Of a stretch of 13,436 nucleotides of DNA, positions 1 to 13,436 are shown in pieces. This stretch comes from a virus (lineage: Duplodnaviria > Heunggongvirae > Uroviricota > Caudoviricetes). The position numbers and the translations under genes are program-made. Under the pieces are notes generated by a model. The model had not been told where the DNA came from. It worked only from the letters and a program-made list of their open reading frames with translations, and did no database searches. The first letter of the stretch is position 1. Each line of letters starts with the position of its first letter. The DNA is taken from the IMG/VR virus record IMGVR_UViG_2802429224_000007, positions 1 to 13,436 of that record. One strand, 5' to 3'.

Positions 1-192
<192 letters not shown>

Positions 193-205
193 ATGCCAAA
201 GCAGA

Positions 206-2278
<2,073 letters not shown>

Positions 2279-2287
2279 CTATAAATT

Positions 2288-2305
2288 GTCTGATCGGACT
2301 TGTTC
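2288..2305 (+). promoter_or_regulatory. FadR-like operator box in the fabB promoter (tctgatcggacttgttc)
   Basis: The sequence tctgatcggacttgttc resembles the FadR consensus (CTGGTCNGACCTGTT-like) and sits about 65-85 bp upstream of the fabB ATG, where FadR is known to activate fabB. Site recalled from memory, not computed. Confidence 0.55.
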
Positions 2306-2323
2306 GGCGTACAAGTGTACGCT
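2306..2323 (+). promoter_or_regulatory. FabR-like palindromic operator (ggcgtacaagtgtacgct) in the fabB promoter
   Basis: Near-perfect palindrome gcgtaca-ag-tgtacgc immediately downstream of the FadR-like box. This matches the known arrangement in which the FabR site abuts the FadR site in fabA and fabB promoters. Confidence 0.6.
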
Positions 2324-2370
2324 ATTGTGCATTCGAAACTTACTCTATGTGCGACTTACAGAGGTATTGA

Positions 2371-3591
2371 ATGAAACGTGCAGTGATTACTGGCCTGGGC
2401 ATTGTTTCCAGCATCGGTAATAACCAGCAGGAAGTCCTGGCATCTCTGCGTGAAGGACGTTCAGGGATCACTTTCTCTCAGGAGCTGAAGGATTCCGGCA
2501 TGCGTAGCCACGTCTGGGGCAACGTAAAACTGGATACCACTGGCCTCATTGACCGCAAAGTTGTGCGCTTTATGAGCGACGCATCCATCTATGCATTCCT
2601 TTCTATGGAGCAGGCAATCGCAGATGCTGGCCTCTCCCCGGAAGCTTACCAGAATAACCCGCGCGTTGGCCTGATTGCAGGTTCTGGCGGCGGTTCCCCG
2701 CGTTTCCAGGTGTTCGGTGCTGACGCAATGCGCGGCCCGCGTGGCCTGAAAGCGGTTGGCCCGTATGTGGTCACCAAAGCGATGGCATCTGGCGTTTCTG
2801 CCTGCCTCGCCACACCGTTTAAAATCCACGGTGTTAACTACTCCATCAGCTCCGCTTGTGCGACTTCCGCACACTGTATCGGTAACGCAGTCGAGCAGAT
2901 CCAACTGGGCAAACAAGACATCGTGTTTGCTGGTGGTGGCGAAGAGCTGTGCTGGGAAATGGCGTGCGAATTTGACGCGATGGGCGCGCTGTCTACCAAA
3001 TACAATGACACCCCGGAAAAAGCCTCCCGTACTTATGACGCTCACCGCGATGGTTTTGTTATCGCTGGCGGCGGCGGTATGGTGGTGGTTGAAGAGCTGG
3101 AACACGCGCTGGCTCGTGGTGCTCACATCTACGCTGAAATCGTTGGCTACGGCGCAACGTCTGATGGCGCAGACATGGTTGCTCCGTCTGGCGAGGGCGC
3201 GGTTCGCTGCATGAAGATGGCGATGCACGGCGTTGATACCCCAATCGACTACCTGAACTCTCACGGTACTTCGACTCCGGTTGGCGATGTGAAAGAGTTG
3301 GCAGCTATCCGGGAAGTGTTCGGTGATAATAGCCCGGCGATTTCTGCAACTAAAGCGATGACCGGTCACTCACTGGGCGCTGCAGGTGTGCAGGAAGCAA
3401 TCTACTCTCTGCTGATGCTGGAACACGGCTTTATCGCCCCAAGCATTAACATTGAAGAGCTGGACGAGCAGGCTGCGGGACTGAACATCGTAACCGAAAC
3501 GACCGATCGCGAGCTGACCACCGTTATGTCTAACAGCTTCGGCTTCGGCGGCACCAACGCCACGCTGGTAATGCGTAAGCTGAAAGATTAA
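2371..3591 (+). CDS. fabB: 3-oxoacyl-[acyl-carrier-protein] synthase I (beta-ketoacyl-ACP synthase I, KAS I)
   Basis: 406-aa ORF with hallmark KAS I motifs: active-site Cys in SSACATSAH, catalytic His in [11 protein letters not shown] and [12 protein letters not shown], and C-terminal [15 protein letters not shown] gagg 6 nt upstream of ATG 2371. Stop TAA 3589-3591. Confidence 0.97.
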
Positions 3592-3604
3592 TTCTGCGAC
3601 ATGT

Positions 3605-3685
3605 CGGAGTCGGTTGGAGCAGCTCGGATAAGACGCGTAAGCGTCGCATCCGACATTACGCGCCAGCTCCGCATTCGGCAGTAAC
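3605..3685. repeat. REP-like extragenic palindromic element downstream of fabB
   Basis: Imperfect palindromic sequence cggataagacgcgtaagcgtcgcatccgac flanked by partially complementary arms (ggagcagctcgg / cgccagctccg), typical of REP units. Confidence 0.5.
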
Positions 3686-3690
3686 GCAAA

Positions 3691-3715
3691 AGGGAGCCTG
3701 ATGGTTCCCTTTTTC
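3691..3715 (+). terminator. Rho-independent terminator downstream of fabB
   Basis: Hairpin agggagcc-tgat-ggttccct (8 bp, one G-U pair) followed by a T-tract (ttttt). Confidence 0.65.
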
Positions 3716-3874
3716 ACATCATTGACAATCGCTGTTTGTTCCAGGCAAACTTCTTGCTTTGTCGATATCCTGCTGAAAATACGTACGCGTTAAACCCTTC
3801 CAACGCACTGTAACCCTGAAAACCAGAGAGATAAGACGGGGAAATTCTTCGCCTTGCGCTGCATTCTGGAGTAA

Positions 3875-6048
<2,174 letters not shown>

Positions 6049-6187
6049 TACGTATCCTTATACCTGAAATCATCGCAAGTATGCCTGGCCGCGAGATTAT
6101 GGCACACTTGTCCGGTTAACTCTCGTTCTCATACAGGTAGCACAAACGTGAAAATCCTTGTTGATGAAAAAGATGATTGGTTAATTT

Positions 6188-6211
6188 ATTGATATAAAAG
6201 GATTTATATCA
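6188..6211. promoter_or_regulatory. Perfect 10-bp inverted repeat ttgatataaa-agga-tttatatcaa in the flk upstream region
   Basis: Exact palindrome with a 4-nt spacer, AT-rich, about 140 bp upstream of the flk start. Candidate operator or recombination site; function unknown. Confidence 0.3.
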
Positions 6212-6251
6212 ACGTATGTCCACGCAGTGACCACATTTTCGAGATATAGTT

Positions 6252-6285
6252 AAAGCCCGTAAAATATGCGGGCTTTATAATTCTT
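6252..6285 (+). terminator. Hairpin plus T-rich tail (aaagcccg-taaaatatg-cgggcttt, then ataattctt), terminator-like
   Basis: 8-bp stem with a 9-nt loop followed by a T-rich run. No plus-strand gene ends immediately upstream, so it may instead mark the core/island junction. Confidence 0.3.
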
Positions 6286-6327
6286 GCTTTGCCCTCTTTT
6301 CAAACCATAAAATTTGTGTGCCTTTTT

Positions 6328-6334
6328 GGGGGGG
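6328..6334. repeat. G7 homopolymeric tract in the putative promoter region of the 246-aa gene
   Basis: ttttt-ggggggg-ag lies 33-39 bp upstream of ATG 6367. Homopolymeric tracts of this length are uncommon in E. coli intergenic DNA. Confidence 0.9.
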
Positions 6335-6366
6335 AGTTTTATCTTTGATATTATGGAGAATTATTC

Positions 6367-7107
6367 ATGCTTCATTGGGTTTGTACAAAATGTCAGTCTA
6401 AAAATTCTACGAAGGAATCAGTGTGTCCTGCGTGTGGAACTTCTTTTTGGTCGACGCAGAAAAAAGAAAGGAGAGGGTGTTTATTGTTGGTTGTAATGCT
6501 CTTCGTTGTGTTTTGGGTTATTGGGCAATTATCCGGAAACGAATCCGATTCACAGGTAAATAATATTCCATCGAAAGATCATATTAGCGATGAACTTGCT
6601 TTATCTGGAGTAGACAAGGCGAAACCGTATTCTTTTGTGCGTTATGACGACATAAGTTATGCGGGACGAAAGAGATTTAAGGTTTTTATAGTGTCGCCTG
6701 AATCTCAAGATTTAGAATCAAGAGTTTCGACAGCAAGGGCTGCGGCTATTGAGTGGCAGAAAGAAAAGAGAGCTGACTTTGTGTCTGTGTTGCTTCTACC
6801 TACGGAAAATTCGGAAGGTAGTTATCTATTGACAATGGCTGATTATTCTCCTGATGGTTGCGGAACTGGTGCCGTATGTGACAATAAAAAATGGGCTATA
6901 TCATCTAGTGATGTAATATTAACAAAATCACAACTTCAATCCATATCTTTGTGGAATGAATATAAGAAAAAGTTTGCGGGTAATGATGGGGTTTTGGATT
7001 TAAAGGAAGAAAAGAAATTGAAGCAGTTTATTAGTAAGCAGCTAAATATTCCTGTTAAGGATGTATTTGCTCCAAGAGTCTTGCCTTTAAAGGAAATCGT
7101 AGATTAA
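6367..7107 (+). CDS. Hypothetical membrane protein with N-terminal zinc ribbon (CxxC-x13-CxxC), one transmembrane helix and a ~190-aa C-terminal (likely periplasmic) domain
   Basis: 246-aa ORF: CTKCQSKNSTKESVCPACG, then hydrophobic segment CLLLVVMLFVVFWVIGQL, then a K/E/S-rich domain. Markedly AT-rich compared with the flanking core genes, consistent with horizontal acquisition. SD ggag about 8 nt upstream of ATG. Confidence 0.6.
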   Translation: MLHWVCTKCQSKNSTKESVCPACGTSFWSTQKKERRGCLLLVVMLFVVFWVIGQLSGNESDSQVNNIPSKDHISDELALSGVDKAKPYSFVRYDDISYAGRKRFKVFIVSPESQDLESRVSTARAAAIEWQKEKRADFVSVLLLPTENSEGSYLLTMADYSPDGCGTGAVCDNKKWAISSSDVILTKSQLQSISLWNEYKKKFAGNDGVLDLKEEKKLKQFISKQLNIPVKDVFAPRVLPLKEIVD

Positions 7108-7272
7108 CAAGATAGATGGGGCCAAACTGGTATTATTGCAACCCTCACTTGTGAGGGTGCAAAAAACCGTAGTTTTTGCGCTGCGGGTTTCTGCTTTGGG
7201 ATGATAGGGTGCCTTATCGACCTTAACCCTGGCAACCGATTGACGGGGGATTGCTCCCCCGTCGCGGTTTCC

Positions 7273-7413
7273 TTACTGTTTACACTGTAAGAACGCCGCA
7301 AACTCCGCTCCCCAGAAGCTCATCCGTATTTCACACAGCGAGCCGTGCAGCATCCAGATGATGAGGATTGCCGTCACGCAGAACGTGATGACCGTAAGCG
7401 ATTTTTGCGACAT
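7273..7413 (-). CDS. hok: Hok/Gef-family type I toxin (small membrane-depolarising peptide), 46 aa
   Basis: Manual translation of the minus strand gives MSQKSLTVITFCVTAILIIWMLHGSLCEIRMSFWGAEFAAFLQCKQ. It has the family hallmarks: N-terminal transmembrane helix, SLCE(I/L) motif and C-terminal E(F/L)AAFL.CK (compare HokA ...SLCELHIKQESYELAAFLACKLKE). Strong SD aaggag 8 nt upstream of ATG 7413. Not in the ORF track because it is under 60 aa. Confidence 0.82.
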   Translation of the reverse strand: MSQKSLTVITFCVTAILIIWMLHGSLCEIRMSFWGAEFAAFLQCKQ

Positions 7414-7513
7414 AGCGCTTGCTCCTTTTTCGGGGAGGCGCTAACCTATCACTTGCTAAGGGTAGATGGTTAGGGCCTCGGTTAAACAAAAATGTTTTCC
7501 GGGGCCTTTCCAC
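7331..7513 (-). CDS. Mok-like overlapping reading frame (putative translational coupler for hok)
   Basis: 60-codon ORF in a different frame, starting about 100 nt upstream of hok (GTG 7513) and ending inside hok, as expected for mok in hok/sok loci. Basic, low-complexity product. Could also be a chance ORF. Confidence 0.3.
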   Translation of the reverse strand: MERPRKTFLFNRGPNHLPLASDRLAPPRKRSKRYVAKIAYGHHVLRDGNPHHLDAARLAV

Positions 7514-7599
7514 ATCCGGCCTTCAGGTATTCCCTCCAGCCATCAGCCGAAAGGCACCCGCGCGAATTCTAGCTTGGTTTTTTCCCTTGTTTCAATCCG

Positions 7600-7699
7600 T
7601 TGAGGCCTCTCAGCCTTCTGATATAAAATTCCCGACCGCAGACATTATTCAGTCACGCATTTGATACATGCTTCCGCCGGCGTTCGCGCCGGTTTTTTT
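7600..7699 (+). ncRNA. Candidate ~65-nt small RNA: sigma70-like promoter (TTGAGG -35 at 7600-7605; extended -10 TGaTATAAA at 7619-7627) plus strong intrinsic terminator
   Basis: Promoter-like elements with a 16-nt spacer. The terminator (feature below) is about 50-65 nt downstream of the predicted transcription start. No ORF between them. Located on the strand opposite to hok/mok, upstream of mok, so it could be a Sok-like antisense RNA if the hok leader extends this far. Confidence 0.4.
7676..7699 (+). terminator. Rho-independent terminator (GC-rich stem ccggcg-ttcg-cgccgg followed by T7)
   Basis: Perfect 6-bp GC stem with a 4-nt loop, immediately followed by ttttttt. Terminator-competent on the plus strand only. 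Confidence 0.75.
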
Positions 7700-8081
7700 C
7701 GTCCTGTTGCTGCGTAGATCGTCATGTGCGATCGAGGCGCGGTATTGATCCTTTTTTCAGTTTAATTCTGACTCTTGATTTTGCGCAGGCCGCGCTGCGT
7801 CTGGCTTCTTTGTTTGAGGGTTGTTTAACGCGATCCTTTTCGCGATCGTGTCTTGTCCCACGTAAAGTATGAAAACTCTTTTAATATCAGCCTGTTTTCT
7901 TTCTCCTGCCATTCATGAGATCGTAAAAATCCCTCTGAAAACTGCAAAAAATTTCAAAGCGTGAAATTTCAGATCTTCGCTTTTCCCTCAGTTGCTGCGC
8001 GGGCTGGCGGTCATTTTTGCACGGCAGAAAACTGAAAAACTGTTTCGACACAAAACCCGCGGGTTGGAGGGGGTAGCGCGG

Positions 8082-8124
8082 TTTACGTCACCTCACGCTT
8101 TACGTCACACCGTTTACGTGGTGT
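8082..8124. repeat. Three direct repeats of TTTACGTCAC / TTTACGTG (starts 8082, 8099, 8113), the last embedded in a palindrome cacacc-gtttacgt-ggtgtg
   Basis: Direct repeats spaced 17 and 14 bp apart inside an ORF-free region downstream of the phage-like operon. Resembles iteron or arm-type binding-site arrays. Confidence 0.45.
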
Positions 8125-8242
8125 GCGCATACAGCGCCGGAATGGCACGCAGAACGCATTAATCAGGTGGCAGATATGAAAACGCACGGCCTGAACCGTG
8201 CGTTGCGTGATGGGGCGTTTATGTGGATTTTATGCCCGGTGA

Positions 8243-9940
8243 TCAGGCGATAAGGTCGCCGTATTTTTCGCGCAGGCTCGTAGCCTGTTGGGCGTCTGCG
8301 GCAAGTTCGCTGCTGTTTGTTGGTGCGCCAGTGTTGCTGTGGGTGTGGTTTGCAGTGTGTGTGGCCAGCAACTGAACCAGATCCAGAATATCAATCAACA
8401 ACGTCAGCAGATTAAGTCCGGATTTTTCCCGTGAGCCACCGCGCCCAATAAATACAGTCGGGGCGGTAAATTCCAGGCCGCCGTCCGCCCGGCATGTTCT
8501 GCGGCCTCCCACGTTTTCGGTGAGGTTATGCTCGATAGTGGATGTCGCCCCTTTGAGTTTAGTCAGCAAATCCTGCGCTACCATCTGGATATGCTCACCG
8601 GCTGCGATCGCATAATGGCCAGTAGTAATGTGTTCTGTCTGACCTGTCATCAGCTTGCTGGTTCCCAGAACGCTGGTTATGTCGTTTGCCTGTACTGTTG
8701 TTGTTCTGGTTGTTGTTGTGCGTTCTTCCTGATCGCTGTTAATGGTTCGCCTGGCTGAATGCTCCCTGATTTGCTGGTCGGTTTCTCTGTGCCAGCTTCC
8801 GTCAGTCGTGACACGCTGAAACACTTCTGCGCGCTGTTGTTGCAATTGTTCGCCGGGTTTTACATCAGGCAGGTTATGACCAGCGGGTAAGATTTGCCTG
8901 ATAACAGGCTTATCCGGGCGTCCTTCAATGTTGGATATTTCCACGATGGTGCCTGCTGGCGGGTAGGCAAAACATCCCGCCTCACTGCCAGCCATGGGGA
9001 CGGGGAGTGGTACTGCCGGGTAAACAGGCGTATCGTTTTTATCGTTGCCGTTCTCATCAAGCAACTGCACATCGACGGCGTAGCGTGGGCGGAAGCTGTC
9101 GGCCACATCGCCCAGGGTGACGGATTCCGTTGGGGCAATGACGCGCGCCAGCCTGGTATGTAGAGTACCGCTGGCCAGTTCCGGGAACTGTGTTTCCATC
9201 TGTCTGCGCAATGGTGATTTGGAGACAGGGCTGCCCGTGACGGTAAGGCGCTCCCATGTCAGGGTCATTTTCTCGTTGTTGAGGGCTACGCGGGTAATGC
9301 GTCCGGCGGGAAGATTCACGCCCGGTCGCACAGTTTCCATAAACATGATGTCGATGCTGTTTCCGCCGCTTTGCCCGAGTGTGTACTGTTGCGGAATATC
9401 CGGCATTGTAATACTGGCAAATCGTGAATCAGCTGCGCTTCCCACAAATACAGAACCGTCCGGCATAGGGTGCCAGACGTAATCGCTGATACTGAATGCT
9501 CGCCCCAGTTGGCTGAGCAGTTGTGCTCCGCTGCCGCTGTGGGTGATGTAGGGAGTTGGTATACTGGCATAATCCGCATCCGGAGTGATAAAAACGATAC
9601 CGCTTTGTCGCCCCAGATTATCGAGTACCCCCCGCAACGTCGGGTGTTGCATGGAGCAAGGGAAATCAAAATCCAGCACAGCAGCCGCTTCACGAATAAA
9701 AAGGCGACGTGAGCCATTTTCAGCAGGTTGATCGCGCTCAATGTAGCCGGAGAAATAGCGCCATGCTTCACCGTCACGGCCGAGATCAATTTGTACCATT
9801 GCGCCGGCAAGGCTGTGTTCGGGTGACAGATTGTTAACAGAAATGAAGCCACGACCGGCAGCATTCAGGGTAAGAACAAGGCTTATATCGGCAATTTCCA
9901 CCCGTTCGCCATTAATCATGCAGCGTTGTATCAATTTCAT
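8243..9940 (-). CDS. Phage structural protein, putative baseplate hub / central spike or fiber-tip protein (C-terminal HxH metal-binding apex-like motif)
   Basis: 565-aa ORF and last gene of the operon. ATGA overlap with the upstream gene stop; SD gaggaagg upstream. C-terminus ...LLATHTANHTHSNTGAPTNSS resembles the HxH apex motifs of trimeric spikes and fibers (P2 gpV C-terminus HTHKHPGDSGGTTG; lambda Stf HxH repeats). N-terminal region loosely resembles gpD/gp27-like hub proteins. Recalled from memory, no search run. Confidence 0.4.
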   Translation of the reverse strand: MKLIQRCMINGERVEIADISLVLTLNAAGRGFISVNNLSPEHSLAGAMVQIDLGRDGEAWRYFSGYIERDQPAENGSRRLFIREAAAVLDFDFPCSMQHPTLRGVLDNLGRQSGIVFITPDADYASIPTPYITHSGSGAQLLSQLGRAFSISDYVWHPMPDGSVFVGSAADSRFASITMPDIPQQYTLGQSGGNSIDIMFMETVRPGVNLPAGRITRVALNNEKMTLTWERLTVTGSPVSKSPLRRQMETQFPELASGTLHTRLARVIAPTESVTLGDVADSFRPRYAVDVQLLDENGNDKNDTPVYPAVPLPVPMAGSEAGCFAYPPAGTIVEISNIEGRPDKPVIRQILPAGHNLPDVKPGEQLQQQRAEVFQRVTTDGSWHRETDQQIREHSARRTINSDQEERTTTTRTTTVQANDITSVLGTSKLMTGQTEHITTGHYAIAAGEHIQMVAQDLLTKLKGATSTIEHNLTENVGGRRTCRADGGLEFTAPTVFIGRGGSREKSGLNLLTLLIDILDLVQLLATHTANHTHSNTGAPTNSSELAADAQQATSLREKYGDLIA

Positions 9941-10512
9941 GTTTTCCCTTCCTCTTTCACGCTCCCGATGCCAACAGCATTCAGACCAGAGCCAACGGCA
10001 TCATTGATTTTTTTCCAGAACGAACTTTGCGTATTCATGCCTTTGTCTGGTACCTGTTCGCTGCCATTCTGGGTCTGCTGTCTGGCGATGGTTTTCTGCG
10101 AACCGCTGCGTGCGGATGCTTTCTCTGGCACGCTTAATTTTTCCCTGAGAGTAAAGGTGATCTGCCAGTGCATCTTTCCCTGTTGTTCCGTGGCATCAAT
10201 GCCACCAGAAAACACCCCCTGTCGCATATTGATTGCCTTCGCGGTAGCGTTAGCAATGCGATATGTTTTTTTGGCACCGTTGCTTTCTGTTGCCTCCGCA
10301 AGCTGAAAAATACGGGTCAGAATAGCTTCATCGTTAAAATCAATAACCCCCGACACGCGCAGCTCTTTAGCCTTGTTTCCCTGCTGGGCGCTCGTGGTGC
10401 TGGTTGACTGCCCGGACATATCTTTGTCCGGTAGTTGCATGGTGGCGCTGACGGTGATGTTGCGCAGCAGAATGGCTTCCCCGTCAAGCGCAAGGACAAT
10501 CATCTGGGTCAT
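9937..10512 (-). CDS. Hypothetical phage-associated protein (191 aa)
   Basis: Translationally coupled on both sides (29-nt overlap with the upstream gene, ATGA overlap with the downstream one). SD aaggga upstream of ATG 10512. No recognisable catalytic motif; Q/S/T-rich centre. Confidence 0.55.
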   Translation of the reverse strand: MTQMIVLALDGEAILLRNITVSATMQLPDKDMSGQSTSTTSAQQGNKAKELRVSGVIDFNDEAILTRIFQLAEATESNGAKKTYRIANATAKAINMRQGVFSGGIDATEQQGKMHWQITFTLREKLSVPEKASARSGSQKTIARQQTQNGSEQVPDKGMNTQSSFWKKINDAVGSGLNAVGIGSVKEEGKT

Positions 10513-11197
10513 GTAGTGCTTCCCTTAGTGATGAGAGATTATCGCCGACGAACAGCATCACAGCTGTAAAAACCCACTCGGGGTGTGGGATGTTTTTTTG
10601 TATCAGCACTGCAGCCTGGCTAAGGGCTCCCTTGTAGCAAAAGCGCCACACCGGGCAAAATTTTTGCCGGAGTGCGGCCTGCTGATCAGCGATTTCCTGT
10701 AAGGCTTTATCTCTCGCATTCATGAACTGATGCAGCGATGATGACAATGTTTCCGGTGATGTGGCGGCAGGAGTGGCTGCCTGTGCAATGGTTGCTGCCA
10801 GCGACATGCTGCGAGTGGTCTGTGTCGACAGCATTATCGGTTCCGGAAGTGATGTTGCCGGTCTGGCGGGGATTTGCATTCTGCTGATGGCCAGTGAAAG
10901 TTGACTGGAAATCATGCGGGACATTCGCCCCACCTCTGGCAATGGAAATGCGCCTGAAAATTGCCTGGCGAGTGATAAAAACTCGCCAGCAGAAGGAGCG
11001 CAAAACAACAGCGCCACAATGTCTTTTTCTGTGCTTTCTTTCAGGTAGGGTAAAAGTGCAGATACAGCATTTTCGGGGCTGAGATAACGCCCCGATGGTT
11101 TGATGTTTCCGGTATTTTCTGACCATGGATGAAGGCAAACCACAGAGCATTTAATGTTCATGGCTGACGGGCGCAGAATTGCCTTTTCCCATTTCAT
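10484..11197 (-). CDS. Hypothetical phage-associated protein (237 aa), S/T/A/P-rich low-complexity central region
   Basis: ATGA overlap with the upstream gene stop (11194-11197). Longest frame across the interval, but unusual composition and a nested alternative-frame ORF (10707..11150) make the coding call less secure. Composition is reminiscent of tape-measure or linker proteins. Confidence 0.45.
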   Translation of the reverse strand: MKWEKAILRPSAMNIKCSVVCLHPWSENTGNIKPSGRYLSPENAVSALLPYLKESTEKDIVALLFCAPSAGEFLSLARQFSGAFPLPEVGRMSRMISSQLSLAISRMQIPARPATSLPEPIMLSTQTTRSMSLAATIAQAATPAATSPETLSSSLHQFMNARDKALQEIADQQAALRQKFCPVWRFCYKGALSQAAVLIQKNIPHPEWVFTAVMLFVGDNLSSLREALHDPDDCPCA

Positions 11198-11766
11198 TCT
11201 GACTCTCCAGCCTGAAAAGCGCGGATGTCGGCAAGATTATTCAGGCTATCCAGCACATCCTTCATCTGTCGCTGACGTCGATAAATTTCATCGTTGCGGT
11301 TAACTTGCGCCCGTGCCATTGCTGTAGCCAGCTCTTCAAGCTCTGGCATCGACATCTTCACTTGTTGATTATCGGCGTCACCCCATGCCATAACGTCCCG
11401 TGCTGTGTCGGATTTCGCAGCCATTACTACCGGATAAAGGCGGGTCAGTGAGTCCGGGCCAGCGTTCCAGGTGCGTCCGTTCCATTCGAATGCGAACGGC
11501 TGCGCTTCCTGTTCTGTTCGCCAGGCTTCGATTTCCTGGCGTTTTGCGGCTTTTGCCGCTGCGATAAGTTCCGGCGTGACGGTGAACGGGGCGATTTCGC
11601 CCCATTTGCCGCTTTGCAGTTCCCGCCAGACTCGCTGGCCTGTTGTTGCTGTGTCTTCTGATGTGGCTGTGTAGGGAACAAATTCCCCCATTCCTTCAAA
11701 AAGCACTTCGCAGTCAATCGCTCCAGATTCCAGATAACGTGGATTCAGAATTTTTATAACTCGCAT
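11194..11766 (-). CDS. Putative tail fiber assembly / chaperone-like protein (190 aa, acidic, helical C-terminal half)
   Basis: TAATG overlap with the upstream 419-aa gene; SD gagga. Position directly after a fiber-like gene and the pattern ...FEWNGRTW...MSMPELEELATAMARAQ... resemble phage tail-assembly chaperone families (DUF4376-like). Assignment from memory only. Confidence 0.4.
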   Translation of the reverse strand: MRVIKILNPRYLESGAIDCEVLFEGMGEFVPYTATSEDTATTGQRVWRELQSGKWGEIAPFTVTPELIAAAKAAKRQEIEAWRTEQEAQPFAFEWNGRTWNAGPDSLTRLYPVVMAAKSDTARDVMAWGDADNQQVKMSMPELEELATAMARAQVNRNDEIYRRQRQMKDVLDSLNNLADIRAFQAGESE

Positions 11767-13025
11767 TACGCAATCCTCATAAACAGCCCTACAACAGCCC
11801 TTGTGTAGACATTGACCGAGTCGGTGCTGGATAAAGAAATGTAAGTGCCTGAAAGGTCGGCTCCACCTACAAGTGCAGTGGGGCCTGATTCAAATCCTGA
11901 AGAACGAAAATCCGCATAAAACGTCGCCTGTCGAAGCCTTGAGCCGGAATATGACCGTCCACGAATCAGCGTTTTTTTGCTTTCGCTGTCTGAATCTCCG
12001 GTATATGCGGCAAGAACAAGTCCTCCAATATCAGGGAGGTTGTGGTATGAGTCAGTCCATGAATACAATACTCGCGTAAAATCATCCACCTTAAGTAGTT
12101 TTTTTTCCCAACTGTCAGGCAGGGTTGCAGGGGTGATACCGCTGTGAATTCTTGCTGTATAACTCTCCCCATTTATTCCTTTAAAAATTACCTGCTTCGT
12201 TTCTTTTTGCTGATTCTCCGGGGTGGTATTTGTGCGAATTTCAATATCCAGATAGCCGGAAAAAACCAGCGTGCTGGGGCCAGTAATTATGGGGTTCTTT
12301 TTACTGCCACCGAACTGGCTGACAAGATAACGCCCGGGTGGTGTTTCACGTACCCACTGTAAAAATTCGGTCGGCCCCCTTTCGGCACTGAATTTAATTT
12401 CCTCTCCATATTTAAACAGTGCACCAAAGCCGAATGCACCTGGTATGGCAAGGCAACCTTCGGTGCGGTCGTAAATATCGCTCTGGGATTCCATTGTAGA
12501 CGCACTTTTTAGTCCCAGATTGTTTCGGGATTCCTGCTGCGCCTCTTCTCCCTCTGCTGCAATTTCTGACAATCGGTTAGGAGCTTTCAGCATTGATTTC
12601 AGCTCGGGGGTAATATCCACCTGCCAGCTCTGTGGAGGAACGGTAATCTGCGCAGCCTGAGCCACGCCCTGATAAGTAATCGTGAAATTCCTGACCAGTG
12701 ACTCGCCAGTATGTTTCTGGCGAACAGGGGTTTTTATTACGCCGCACAGTGTTCTGCTGGCCTGATGAATGAGGCAAATCCAGTCATAGCTGAATGCACA
12801 GTCATCAGGAACAACTGCGCTACACACAATATTGTTCGGGTTTAACTGGCCATAGGTCAGTTCATTCACAGCATATGTGATTTTTTCTTCCGGAACGGTA
12901 TTATCTTCGCGCGTTGGTTCCCGCTCCATCAGAGCAAAAATAATGGCGTCAGGACGTGCAGGTAAATTACTGGCTGTGCATTCGGCAACCCACTTTTCAA
13001 ATGCTTTCGTTAACAGTGCGCTCAT
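11766..13025 (-). CDS. Putative phage tail fiber protein (419 aa) with a divergent tail-collar/fiber N-terminal domain
   Basis: N-terminal ~120 aa follows the spacing pattern of P2 gpH / Mu gpS-type fiber N-domains (VVPDD..F.YDWICL...TL.GV compared with VIPADVGGF..RE.GL.D..G.LIAV), but the conserved GDG motif is absent. Followed by a chaperone-like gene. Low-confidence functional call. Confidence 0.4.
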   Translation of the reverse strand: MSALLTKAFEKWVAECTASNLPARPDAIIFALMEREPTREDNTVPEEKITYAVNELTYGQLNPNNIVCSAVVPDDCAFSYDWICLIHQASRTLCGVIKTPVRQKHTGESLVRNFTITYQGVAQAAQITVPPQSWQVDITPELKSMLKAPNRLSEIAAEGEEAQQESRNNLGLKSASTMESQSDIYDRTEGCLAIPGAFGFGALFKYGEEIKFSAERGPTEFLQWVRETPPGRYLVSQFGGSKKNPIITGPSTLVFSGYLDIEIRTNTTPENQQKETKQVIFKGINGESYTARIHSGITPATLPDSWEKKLLKVDDFTRVLYSWTDSYHNLPDIGGLVLAAYTGDSDSESKKTLIRGRSYSGSRLRQATFYADFRSSGFESGPTALVGGADLSGTYISLSSTDSVNVYTRAVVGLFMRIA

Positions 13026-13031
13026 TACTTC

Positions 13032-13436
13032 TTAATTCTCGCTAATGTTCTGCGGTAATTCTGGCCATACAATCGAGGCATACGATGCTTTATCTGTAAC
13101 CTGGCTGAATGTCATCTGCTGTAGTGCTTTCGCATAAATACGGCATGCTTTCAGTTTTTCCCTGTCTTCGTCGCTGATTAATCCCAGCAGCAGGTCTTTT
13201 TCCCATTCGCTGGTCATGATGCTGGCCTGTTTTAACAGTGCATCACGCTCATCTTCCGCTTTAAGTTTGTAGTCAAAAACAAATGCATCATTGCGGTAGA
13301 ACCAGTAACCCGACGCCTCAATGCGACGATTGGCGGTAATATCCGGTAGCTCAATCACGCTTTTATTTTCCGGGCAGATTGAGGTGATGTCTTTTCCAAC
13401 CCAGACCACTTCGCCAGTTTCAACATAAATAACTTT
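13032..13436 (-). CDS. Tail fiber assembly protein, P2 gpG / Tfa family (5'-truncated by the window end)
   Basis: The frame is open to the window edge; the ORF-track start at 13409 is a GTG and in-frame codons continue upstream (KVIYVETGEVVWVGKD...). Matches gpG-type Tfa as I recall it: VIELPDITANRR (compare VVEVPDITSNRR) and the C-terminal ...Y..L...D....I.WPELP motif. Confidence 0.7.
   Translation of the reverse strand, partial: KVIYVETGEVVWVGKDITSICPENKSVIELPDITANRRIEASGYWFYRNDAFVFDYKLKAEDERDALLKQASIMTSEWEKDLLLGLISDEDREKLKACRIYAKALQQMTFSQVTDKASYASIVWPELPQNISEN

Follow-up and report, generated by a model that had tools for sequence, protein, structure and literature searches.

The DNA from position 6171 to the end of the analyzed stretch at 13436 is very probably the right-hand (attR-side) end of a P2-family (Peduoviridae) prophage in Escherichia marmotae, integrated at an attachment core inside pdxB. 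The window, by which we mean the whole stretch of DNA that was analyzed, is the entire contig PTST01000056.1 (13,436 bases) of assembly GCA_002965365.1, from E. marmotae (Escherichia sp. MOD1-EC5948). The prophage itself is undescribed, though of a known type; its integration site and mechanism are already published as the pdxB attachment site of phage phiSM.

The left 6.1 kb of the window is core chromosome carrying mnmC (minus strand), fabB (plus), yfcJ (plus), and flk (minus), with 83 to 95% identity to E. coli. The Flk protein matches that of E. marmotae at every residue, and the flk DNA is 83% identical to K-12 flk. The original prediction was that pdxB should lie next to flk and divergent from it, and the K-12 reference indeed has pdxB in that orientation, 98 bp away. 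Similarity to K-12 spans positions 98 to 6170 of the window and then ends. Alignment with an empty site from the same species, E. marmotae, gave 100% identity through 6170, which was lost from 6171. Comparison with intact flk-pdxB loci, which had been proposed as a check, therefore mapped the junction to 6170/6171. The break lies 23 nt into pdxB and not within the flk-pdxB spacer. Features on the chromosomal side are as follows.

5053 to 6048, minus strand: flk, last of the core genes ahead of the junction (called gene with Pfam Flk_N)
6049 to 6147, no strand: native spacer between flk and pdxB, 99 bp; it matches the conspecific empty site exactly and K-12 at 97.5%
6148 to 6170, plus strand: kept 5′ end of pdxB, 23 nt (GTG AAA ATC CTT GTT GAT GAA AA), from alignment with K-12 and E. 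marmotae pdxB
6154 to 6170, plus strand: attR core, 17 bp, ATCCTTGTTGATGAAAA, an exact match to phiSM attP/attB

The pdxB GTG start is at 6148, and the remnant now runs into a 14-codon ORF (translation VKILVDEKDDWLIY, then stop). Judging from the divergent arrangement of the two genes, the spacer at 6049 to 6147 probably carries the promoter, or whatever drives pdxB at empty sites, and would here be severed from the gene. The core starts 6 bp into pdxB and spans codons 3 to 8. In phiSM, a P2-like phage of Citrobacter rodentium, the attP/attB core was determined experimentally and lies 6 bp inside the pdxB 5′ end in E. coli K-12 (PMC6456863). The window has the identical 17-bp core at the same position in pdxB as this phage (Shae_phiSM, Peduoviridae, Xuanwuvirus; Magaziner et al. 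2019, PMC6456863), whose GenBank record opens with the core. When E. coli STEC719 and K-12 were compared, the block identical in attL, attR, and attB was 20 bp long (6151 to 6170), and AAAATCCTTGTTGATGAAAA was common to attL and attR of STEC719 and attB of K-12. Judged by sequence, the crossover is the 17-bp core at 6154 to 6170, inside pdxB, and not the inverted repeat or the hairpin that lie beyond it. The mechanism of integration, which had been called unclear, thus corresponds to a published attachment site that matches exactly (PMC6456863).

The DNA after flk had also been described as foreign, AT rich, and phage derived, and the composition and gene content agree. GC content is 0.375 to 0.41 across about 6000 to 7200 versus about 0.50 to 0.55 on both sides, and HP1 ORF34/ORF35-like and fiber genes occupy 8243 to 13436. 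The distal part of the window contains the following.

7584 to 8242, no strand: stretch without a convincing ORF, 93 to 98% identical to E. coli prophages
8243 to 9940, minus strand: HP1 ORF35-like baseplate/spike protein, 565 aa (phrog_2258 baseplate protein, E = 4e-233)
9937 to 10512, minus strand: HP1 ORF34 baseplate-complex protein, 191 aa (Pfam PF25759, E = 2.7e-53)
10484 to 11197, minus strand: 237-aa phage protein (phrog_31292, phrog_1677)
11194 to 11766, minus strand: DUF4376 tail-fiber-associated protein, 190 aa (Pfam PF14301; phrog_1141 tail fiber protein)
11766 to 13025, minus strand: tail fiber, 419 aa (Pfam Phage_tail_fib; tail-fiber PHROGs)
13032 to 13436, minus strand: tail-fiber assembly protein, cut at the contig end (Pfam Caudo_TAP)

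Tail and baseplate genes of P2/HP1 type, which we took as the mark of Peduoviridae, are therefore present. Comparison of the structural genes with sequenced phages gave no close match; the ORF35-like protein was nearest, among isolated phages, to ESSI-2-like Peduoviridae, at 45 to 47% amino acid identity. As in the window, an ORF34/ORF35-type baseplate pair closes the tail module of HP1/K139/ESSI-2-like Peduoviridae (e.g., Quadragintavirus), but protein identity is only at this level, and a search found no DNA-level match. HP1 integrates into a tRNA-Leu gene (PMC3448106). The backbone also differs from that of phiSM, where, as in P88, ogr, gpD, and the tail sheath gene come after hok, whereas in the window the ORF35/ORF34-like baseplate and fiber genes do; the hosts, C. 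rodentium and E. marmotae, differ as well. The stretch at 7584 to 8242 had no match in the phage collection and contains TTTACGT three times at about 8083 to 8120. It may hold the cos region; the P2 cos sequence was absent.

The same element is complete in E. coli STEC719 (NZ_CP041411.1, about 1,580,570 to 1,615,600), where about 35 kb lie between flk and pdxB. STEC719 and the window are 91.5% identical over 98 to 11785. The order in STEC719 is flk, attR, DUF4875, hok, HP1 ORF35/34-like baseplate, fibers, tail, and lysis, followed by capsid, terminase, portal, ogr, parM-like, gpA, cox, C, int, attL, and pdxB. The prophage carries a GpQ-GpL capsid/terminase operon, a GpA replication protein, and a cox/C switch. 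Its integrase is identical to phiSM Int at 330 of 334 positions (99%) and adjoins pdxB at the far end, and its int-side arm nearly matches the phiSM one, down to an AAGGAG-N7-TTG that reads in frame into pdxB. Together with STEC719, six further complete E. coli genomes have the same element at the same site, and 95% of the window aligns with these copies at 91 to 92% identity. In STEC719 the attachment arm is 100% identical to that of the window, and DUF4875 and hok are likewise present; DUF4376 and the N-terminal parts of the tail fiber, however, diverge (77% identity or unaligned), the annotation lacks the 237-aa ORF, and the host is another species.

Only one junction, attR, falls within the window, since the contig stops at 13436, about 7 kb into the prophage. 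As originally noted, neither an integrase gene nor a tRNA gene is present in the 13,436-nt window. The integrase is missing because the contig ends, in the tail-fiber assembly gene, about 7 kb into a roughly 35-kb prophage; as the STEC719 twin has int at a distance of about 35 kb, beside pdxB, that of this element is expected past the contig end. The proposed search of the other end for an integrase or att repeat was accordingly answered in the twin, which has both int and a second core, while the other end in this genome lies beyond the contig.

The window displays cargo and tail-end genes alone and then stops, and the E. marmotae type strain CP025979 has a remnant disrupted by IS1 and IS3 at the pdxB site. 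By analogy, what occupies the pdxB site here could be the product of deletions, either a defective remnant or a (tailocin-like) cluster reduced to tail genes. We consider this unlikely: all phage ORFs in the window are intact, gene order and sequence match the complete prophages of the seven E. coli genomes, and breaks of draft assemblies in tail-fiber genes are typical of repeated fiber modules. A tRNA-targeting island was rejected for want of a tRNA, a P4-like satellite because the element has tail structural genes, and IS-mediated insertion because the junction shows neither an IS nor terminal repeats.

Between the attachment arm and the baseplate genes, the prophage carries two segments of different conservation.

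6277 to 7141, plus strand: variable cargo slot, GC about 0.38 to 0.41; its DUF4875 cargo occurs in 7 of 5,426 complete E. coli genomes
6367 to 7107, plus strand: gene for a 246-aa protein with a zinc ribbon (residues 6 to 26), one transmembrane (TM) helix (about 37 to 55), and DUF4875 (84 to 236)
7142 to 7583, minus strand: hok/sok-type toxin-antitoxin module, common to many P2-like and Stx phages
7273 to 7413, minus strand: hok, 46 aa, called Hok/Gef in RefSeq twins

Prophages at the pdxB site are alike through 6276 and again from 7142 and are unlike between these positions. Other contents of the slot are com with a DNA methyltransferase, a zinc-ribbon membrane protein with a VasI/TagO-like protein (phiSM and 500465-2), and an IS621 insertion; it can also be empty. 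In phiSM, as in the window, hok/sok adjoins a cargo slot, but the cargo there is the zinc-ribbon and VasI/TagO-like pair and not DUF4875. The module at 7142 to 7583 is about 90% identical to that of other prophages at the pdxB site and to P88, P884B11, and phiSM. Family scores for hok were consistent with one another but below threshold (Pfam HOK_GEF weak; NCBIfam HokA E = 9e-9, 35 bits against a cutoff of 89), as was the Rfam sok match at 7400 to 7559 on the minus strand (E = 7.5e-8, 43.3 bits against a gathering score of 59).

The DUF4875 domain (Pfam PF16175) scored above the Pfam gathering threshold, corresponds to the fold of PDB 4lg3, and is extracytoplasmic. The exact protein of the window is recorded only for Escherichia sp. 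MOD1-EC5948. A DUF4875 profile search of a word-indexed protein database returned only 11 proteins. The zinc-ribbon/TM/DUF4875 protein recurs in P2-family prophages, and relatives with 26 to 33% identity stand at accessory positions of P2-family elements in Escherichia, Photobacterium, Oceanobacter, Aeromonas, and Vibrio. One adjoins att and the ORF35/34 tail end at another chromosomal site, and the Photobacterium relative adjoins hok. In Oceanobacter, the relative adjoins the portal gene, which is the GpA-GpQ defense hotspot described for P2 (PMC13586616). In Aeromonas phage LPM4 it lies within the repressor-integrase operon, and in Vibrio phage MAR it ends the tail module. These recurrent accessory positions suggest that the DUF4875 cargo is an accessory gene expressed in the lysogen. 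None of six proteins tested against the PADLOC-DB v2 defense models matched at E ≤ 0.01; sequence searches of PADLOC, NCBIfam, and the PDB gave no function for DUF4875, and a literature search for it returned nothing, so the family is missing from the defense databases and literature searched. As a tentative possibility, the zinc-ribbon/TM/DUF4875 protein may provide an unrecognized lysogenic-conversion function of P2-family temperate phages, for example as an envelope superinfection-exclusion or anti-phage protein.

With its GC content of 0.38 to 0.41, the DUF4875 block is unlike both of its neighbors, and other genes replace it in related prophages, as would also be seen if it were a small separate island that had inserted beside flk independently of the prophage. 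This origin is very unlikely, however: the block is internal to the phage, with the attachment arm on one side and hok on the other, is found in E. coli in this prophage context only, has distant homologues that also reside within P2-family prophages and phages, and brings neither repeats nor its own recombinase. The most fitting description is a moron that is swapped between phages by recombination at flanking hairpins.

The attachment arm itself has the following elements.

6171 to 6276, plus strand: attachment arm of the phage, across the core from int, 100% identical to STEC719
6182 to 6194, minus strand: match to the IHF consensus, TATCAATAAATTA (WATCAANNNNTTR), overlapping the left half of the inverted repeat
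6189 to 6198 and 6203 to 6212, no strand: perfect inverted repeat of 10 bp, TTGATATAAA/TTTATATCAA, its halves 4 nt apart; no other occurs in the window
6217 to 6235, minus strand: CGTGGACA and TGTGGTCA, direct repeats whose starts are 11 bp apart and which fit the P2-type integrase arm-site consensus tgTGGaCa
6251 to 6277, plus strand: G+C-rich hairpin, terminator-like on the plus strand (−16 kcal/mol, z = −3.6)

The arm can be aligned to phages or prophages of five additional origins, phiSM and 500465-2 among them, and is conserved across the 7 aligned phage and prophage arms at the pdxB site, which come from different P2-family prophages. The perfect IHF consensus has a single match in the window, where 0.54 are expected by chance and 81 of 200 shuffles contain at least one, so that a single match is compatible with chance. 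The TTAATTTATTGAT beneath the match is invariant in all seven phage arms, and IHF may bind at 6182 to 6194. The 10-bp inverted repeat is not significant alone (shuffled versions of the region covered by the original prediction average 0.08, and 6% of the shuffles have at least one), and the palindrome is degenerate in phiSM. We take the constrained element to be the IHF-like half and not the palindrome. The consensus tgTGGaCa for arm sites of P2-type integrases is published (PMC3448106); with one mismatch allowed, it has only 10 matches in the window on both strands, and CGTGGACA and TGTGGTCA are adjacent to each other. The same arm repeats are present in the int-side arm of STEC719 and phiSM, so that P2-type repeats flank the core, with one arm alone falling within the window. 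In the hairpin stem, seven pairs are invariant across the 7 arms; an outer pair reads AU in five arms but UU in the other two, and a further pair changes among UG, CG, and UA without loss of pairing; the loops vary in sequence and length. The hairpin forms the left edge of the variable cargo slot. Two Rfam matches, a weak one to the Trp leader on the attachment arm (E = 0.36) and one to a snoRNA (E = 0.037), were dismissed as chance.

This arrangement resembles that of phiSM, whose arm likewise has the IHF-like TTAATTTATTGAT, GTCCAC-type arm repeats, and a hairpin. [quoted passage not shown] The core and target differ from those of P2, as the core in the window is not a P2 loc site and, unlike that of P2, lies within a protein-coding gene whose 5′ end is replaced by the phage.

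The inverted repeat and the hairpin had been suggested to mark the junction. Both structures are real, at slightly different coordinates (6189 to 6212 instead of 6188 to 6211 for the repeat, and 6251 to 6277 instead of 6252 to 6276 for the hairpin), but as junction marks they fail: both sit within the phage, in its attachment arm, 19 to 107 bp past the crossover at 6154 to 6170. That an island unrelated to phages went in without an integrase, with these two structures as its junction or terminal repeats, is scarcely credible, since, for all that both exist near the break and are conserved, similarity to the empty site stops 19 bp short of the repeat, the bases at the break are an att core established by experiment, both structures are present in free phage genomes (phiSM and 500465-2), the palindrome is degenerate in phiSM, and the surrogate STEC719 has a matching attL with an integrase.

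The favored account, insertion of a P2-family prophage at pdxB, is as follows. A tyrosine integrase carried out site-specific recombination at the 17-bp core ATCCTTGTTGATGAAAA, 6 bp into pdxB. The first 23 nt of pdxB and the native spacer have stayed beside flk, and the phage arm adjoins the core. Past the arm come the swappable cargo slot (here DUF4875), hok/sok, and then the baseplate and tail-fiber genes; the remainder, past the contig end, would by analogy with STEC719 include the replication genes, cox, the repressor, and, last, the integrase. The int-side arm would join the remaining pdxB and supply a new promoter, Shine-Dalgarno sequence, and TTG start (MSETEKGLKILVDEN...), as judged from STEC719 and phiSM; the attL expected in this strain is GGGTTAAAAATCCTTGTTGATGAAAATATGCC. 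For phiSM, a promoter carried by the phage has been reported to read into pdxB, together with an AAGGAG Shine-Dalgarno sequence and a TTG start codon, and phiSM lysogens kept growing on minimal medium (PMC6456863). Because the int-side arm would restore the start signals of pdxB, the lysogen should remain a vitamin B6 prototroph. The hairpin may insulate the prophage from the orphaned pdxB promoter and, in the circular phage, might also terminate transcripts leaving int.

The distribution of the insertion is that of an accessory element. A 141-nt probe across the empty site was intact in 5,123 of 5,426 complete E. coli genomes, which leaves about 5.6% with an interrupted site. Ten distinct contexts with an identical E. 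marmotae Flk were found: eight were empty, one held a P88-like prophage, and one was the type-strain remnant, which in CP025979 includes a DUF4875 fragment and hok. The genes beyond the junction are thus accessory, as had been proposed, and were not found as conserved core at this locus across the species. Between E. marmotae and E. coli, prophage segments are 92 to 100% identical and flanking core genes 83 to 95%; that the prophage is more alike between the species than the core genes beside it points to its recent horizontal spread. A scan of genome contigs for the attR junction pattern detected no other species; the only hit was a 4.2-kb contig of a Planococcaceae MAG, which is probably contamination.

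The synteny break after flk is thus very probably an ordinary case of a prophage inserted at an attachment site already on record, and the absence of an integrase an artifact of a short contig. The stretch from the arm to hok is a small swappable cargo slot with hairpins at its bounds, and the membrane-anchored DUF4875 protein that it holds here belongs to an uncharacterized phage-associated family. Prophages at the pdxB site occur in E. coli as well as in E. marmotae, and the phiSM-type int/att module is common to two P2-family backbones, one P88/phiSM-like and the other HP1/ESSI-2-like.

The attR junction pattern, which marks the flk-side end of the prophage, had a sole match among GTDB representatives, at positions 4012 to 4051 of DEQA01000038.1, a contig of the Planococcaceae bacterium UBA3378 metagenome-assembled genome (MAG). 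Because an enterobacterial prophage junction here sits in a Firmicutes MAG, the match suggests that this contig is a contaminant. The pdxB attachment site was also inspected in the E. marmotae type-strain chromosome, CP025979 (L024, positions 1 to 4500), where flk is followed by a 72-amino-acid open reading frame (ORF), a 470-amino-acid DUF4116 protein, and IS1, and then by a 68-amino-acid DUF4875 fragment, hok, and a further insertion sequence. The type-strain site is a decayed form of the prophage end in the window, with different extra cargo.

Three TTTACGT direct repeats (GGTTTACGTCACC, GCTTTACGTCACAC, and CGTTTACGTGGTG) lie at 8060-8125, immediately 3′ of the HP1 ORF35-like baseplate/spike gene. 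The record of phage ESSI2_ev015 begins, past adapter remnants, with GTAGCGCCGTTTTTG, which is similar to GTAGCGCGGTTTACG at window position 8073; the 8060-8125 segment may be a cos or terminase-binding region. The surrounding 660 bp (7584-8242) contain no convincing ORF and are 93 to 98% conserved with respect to the E. coli twin prophages; no match to this stretch was found in the phage collection.

A 237-amino-acid ORF (10484-11197, minus strand; phrog_31292/1677) is intact in the window and annotated in E. coli AJ1. It is absent from the annotation of STEC719, the E. coli strain carrying a complete twin prophage, despite 97% DNA identity to window positions 10484-11197. Between gpA and ogr, the STEC719 prophage encodes ParM and a plasmid-partition/stability protein (L005, positions 2382 to 3660); such partition genes are unusual in an integrated P2-family phage.

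On the chromosomal side, a REP/BIME-like unit of ~94 nt is tandemly duplicated 3′ of mnmC (window positions 4-91 and 98-185) and is present as a single copy in the E. coli genomes compared. Rfam naRNA4 (RF02564) matched positions 63-141 on the plus strand with a score above the gathering score.

A G7 homopolymer occupies positions 6328-6334, 33 bp 5′ of the start codon of the DUF4875 gene, and STEC719 carries GGGGTGGTTAG at this position. The run might influence expression, or the site might be prone to assembly error. In Photobacterium carnosum (WMDD01000002.1; L020, positions 5995 to 16000), a DUF4875 homologue adjoins hok in a P2-family element of this marine member of the Vibrionaceae; the DUF4875-hok pairing therefore predates the Escherichia prophage.
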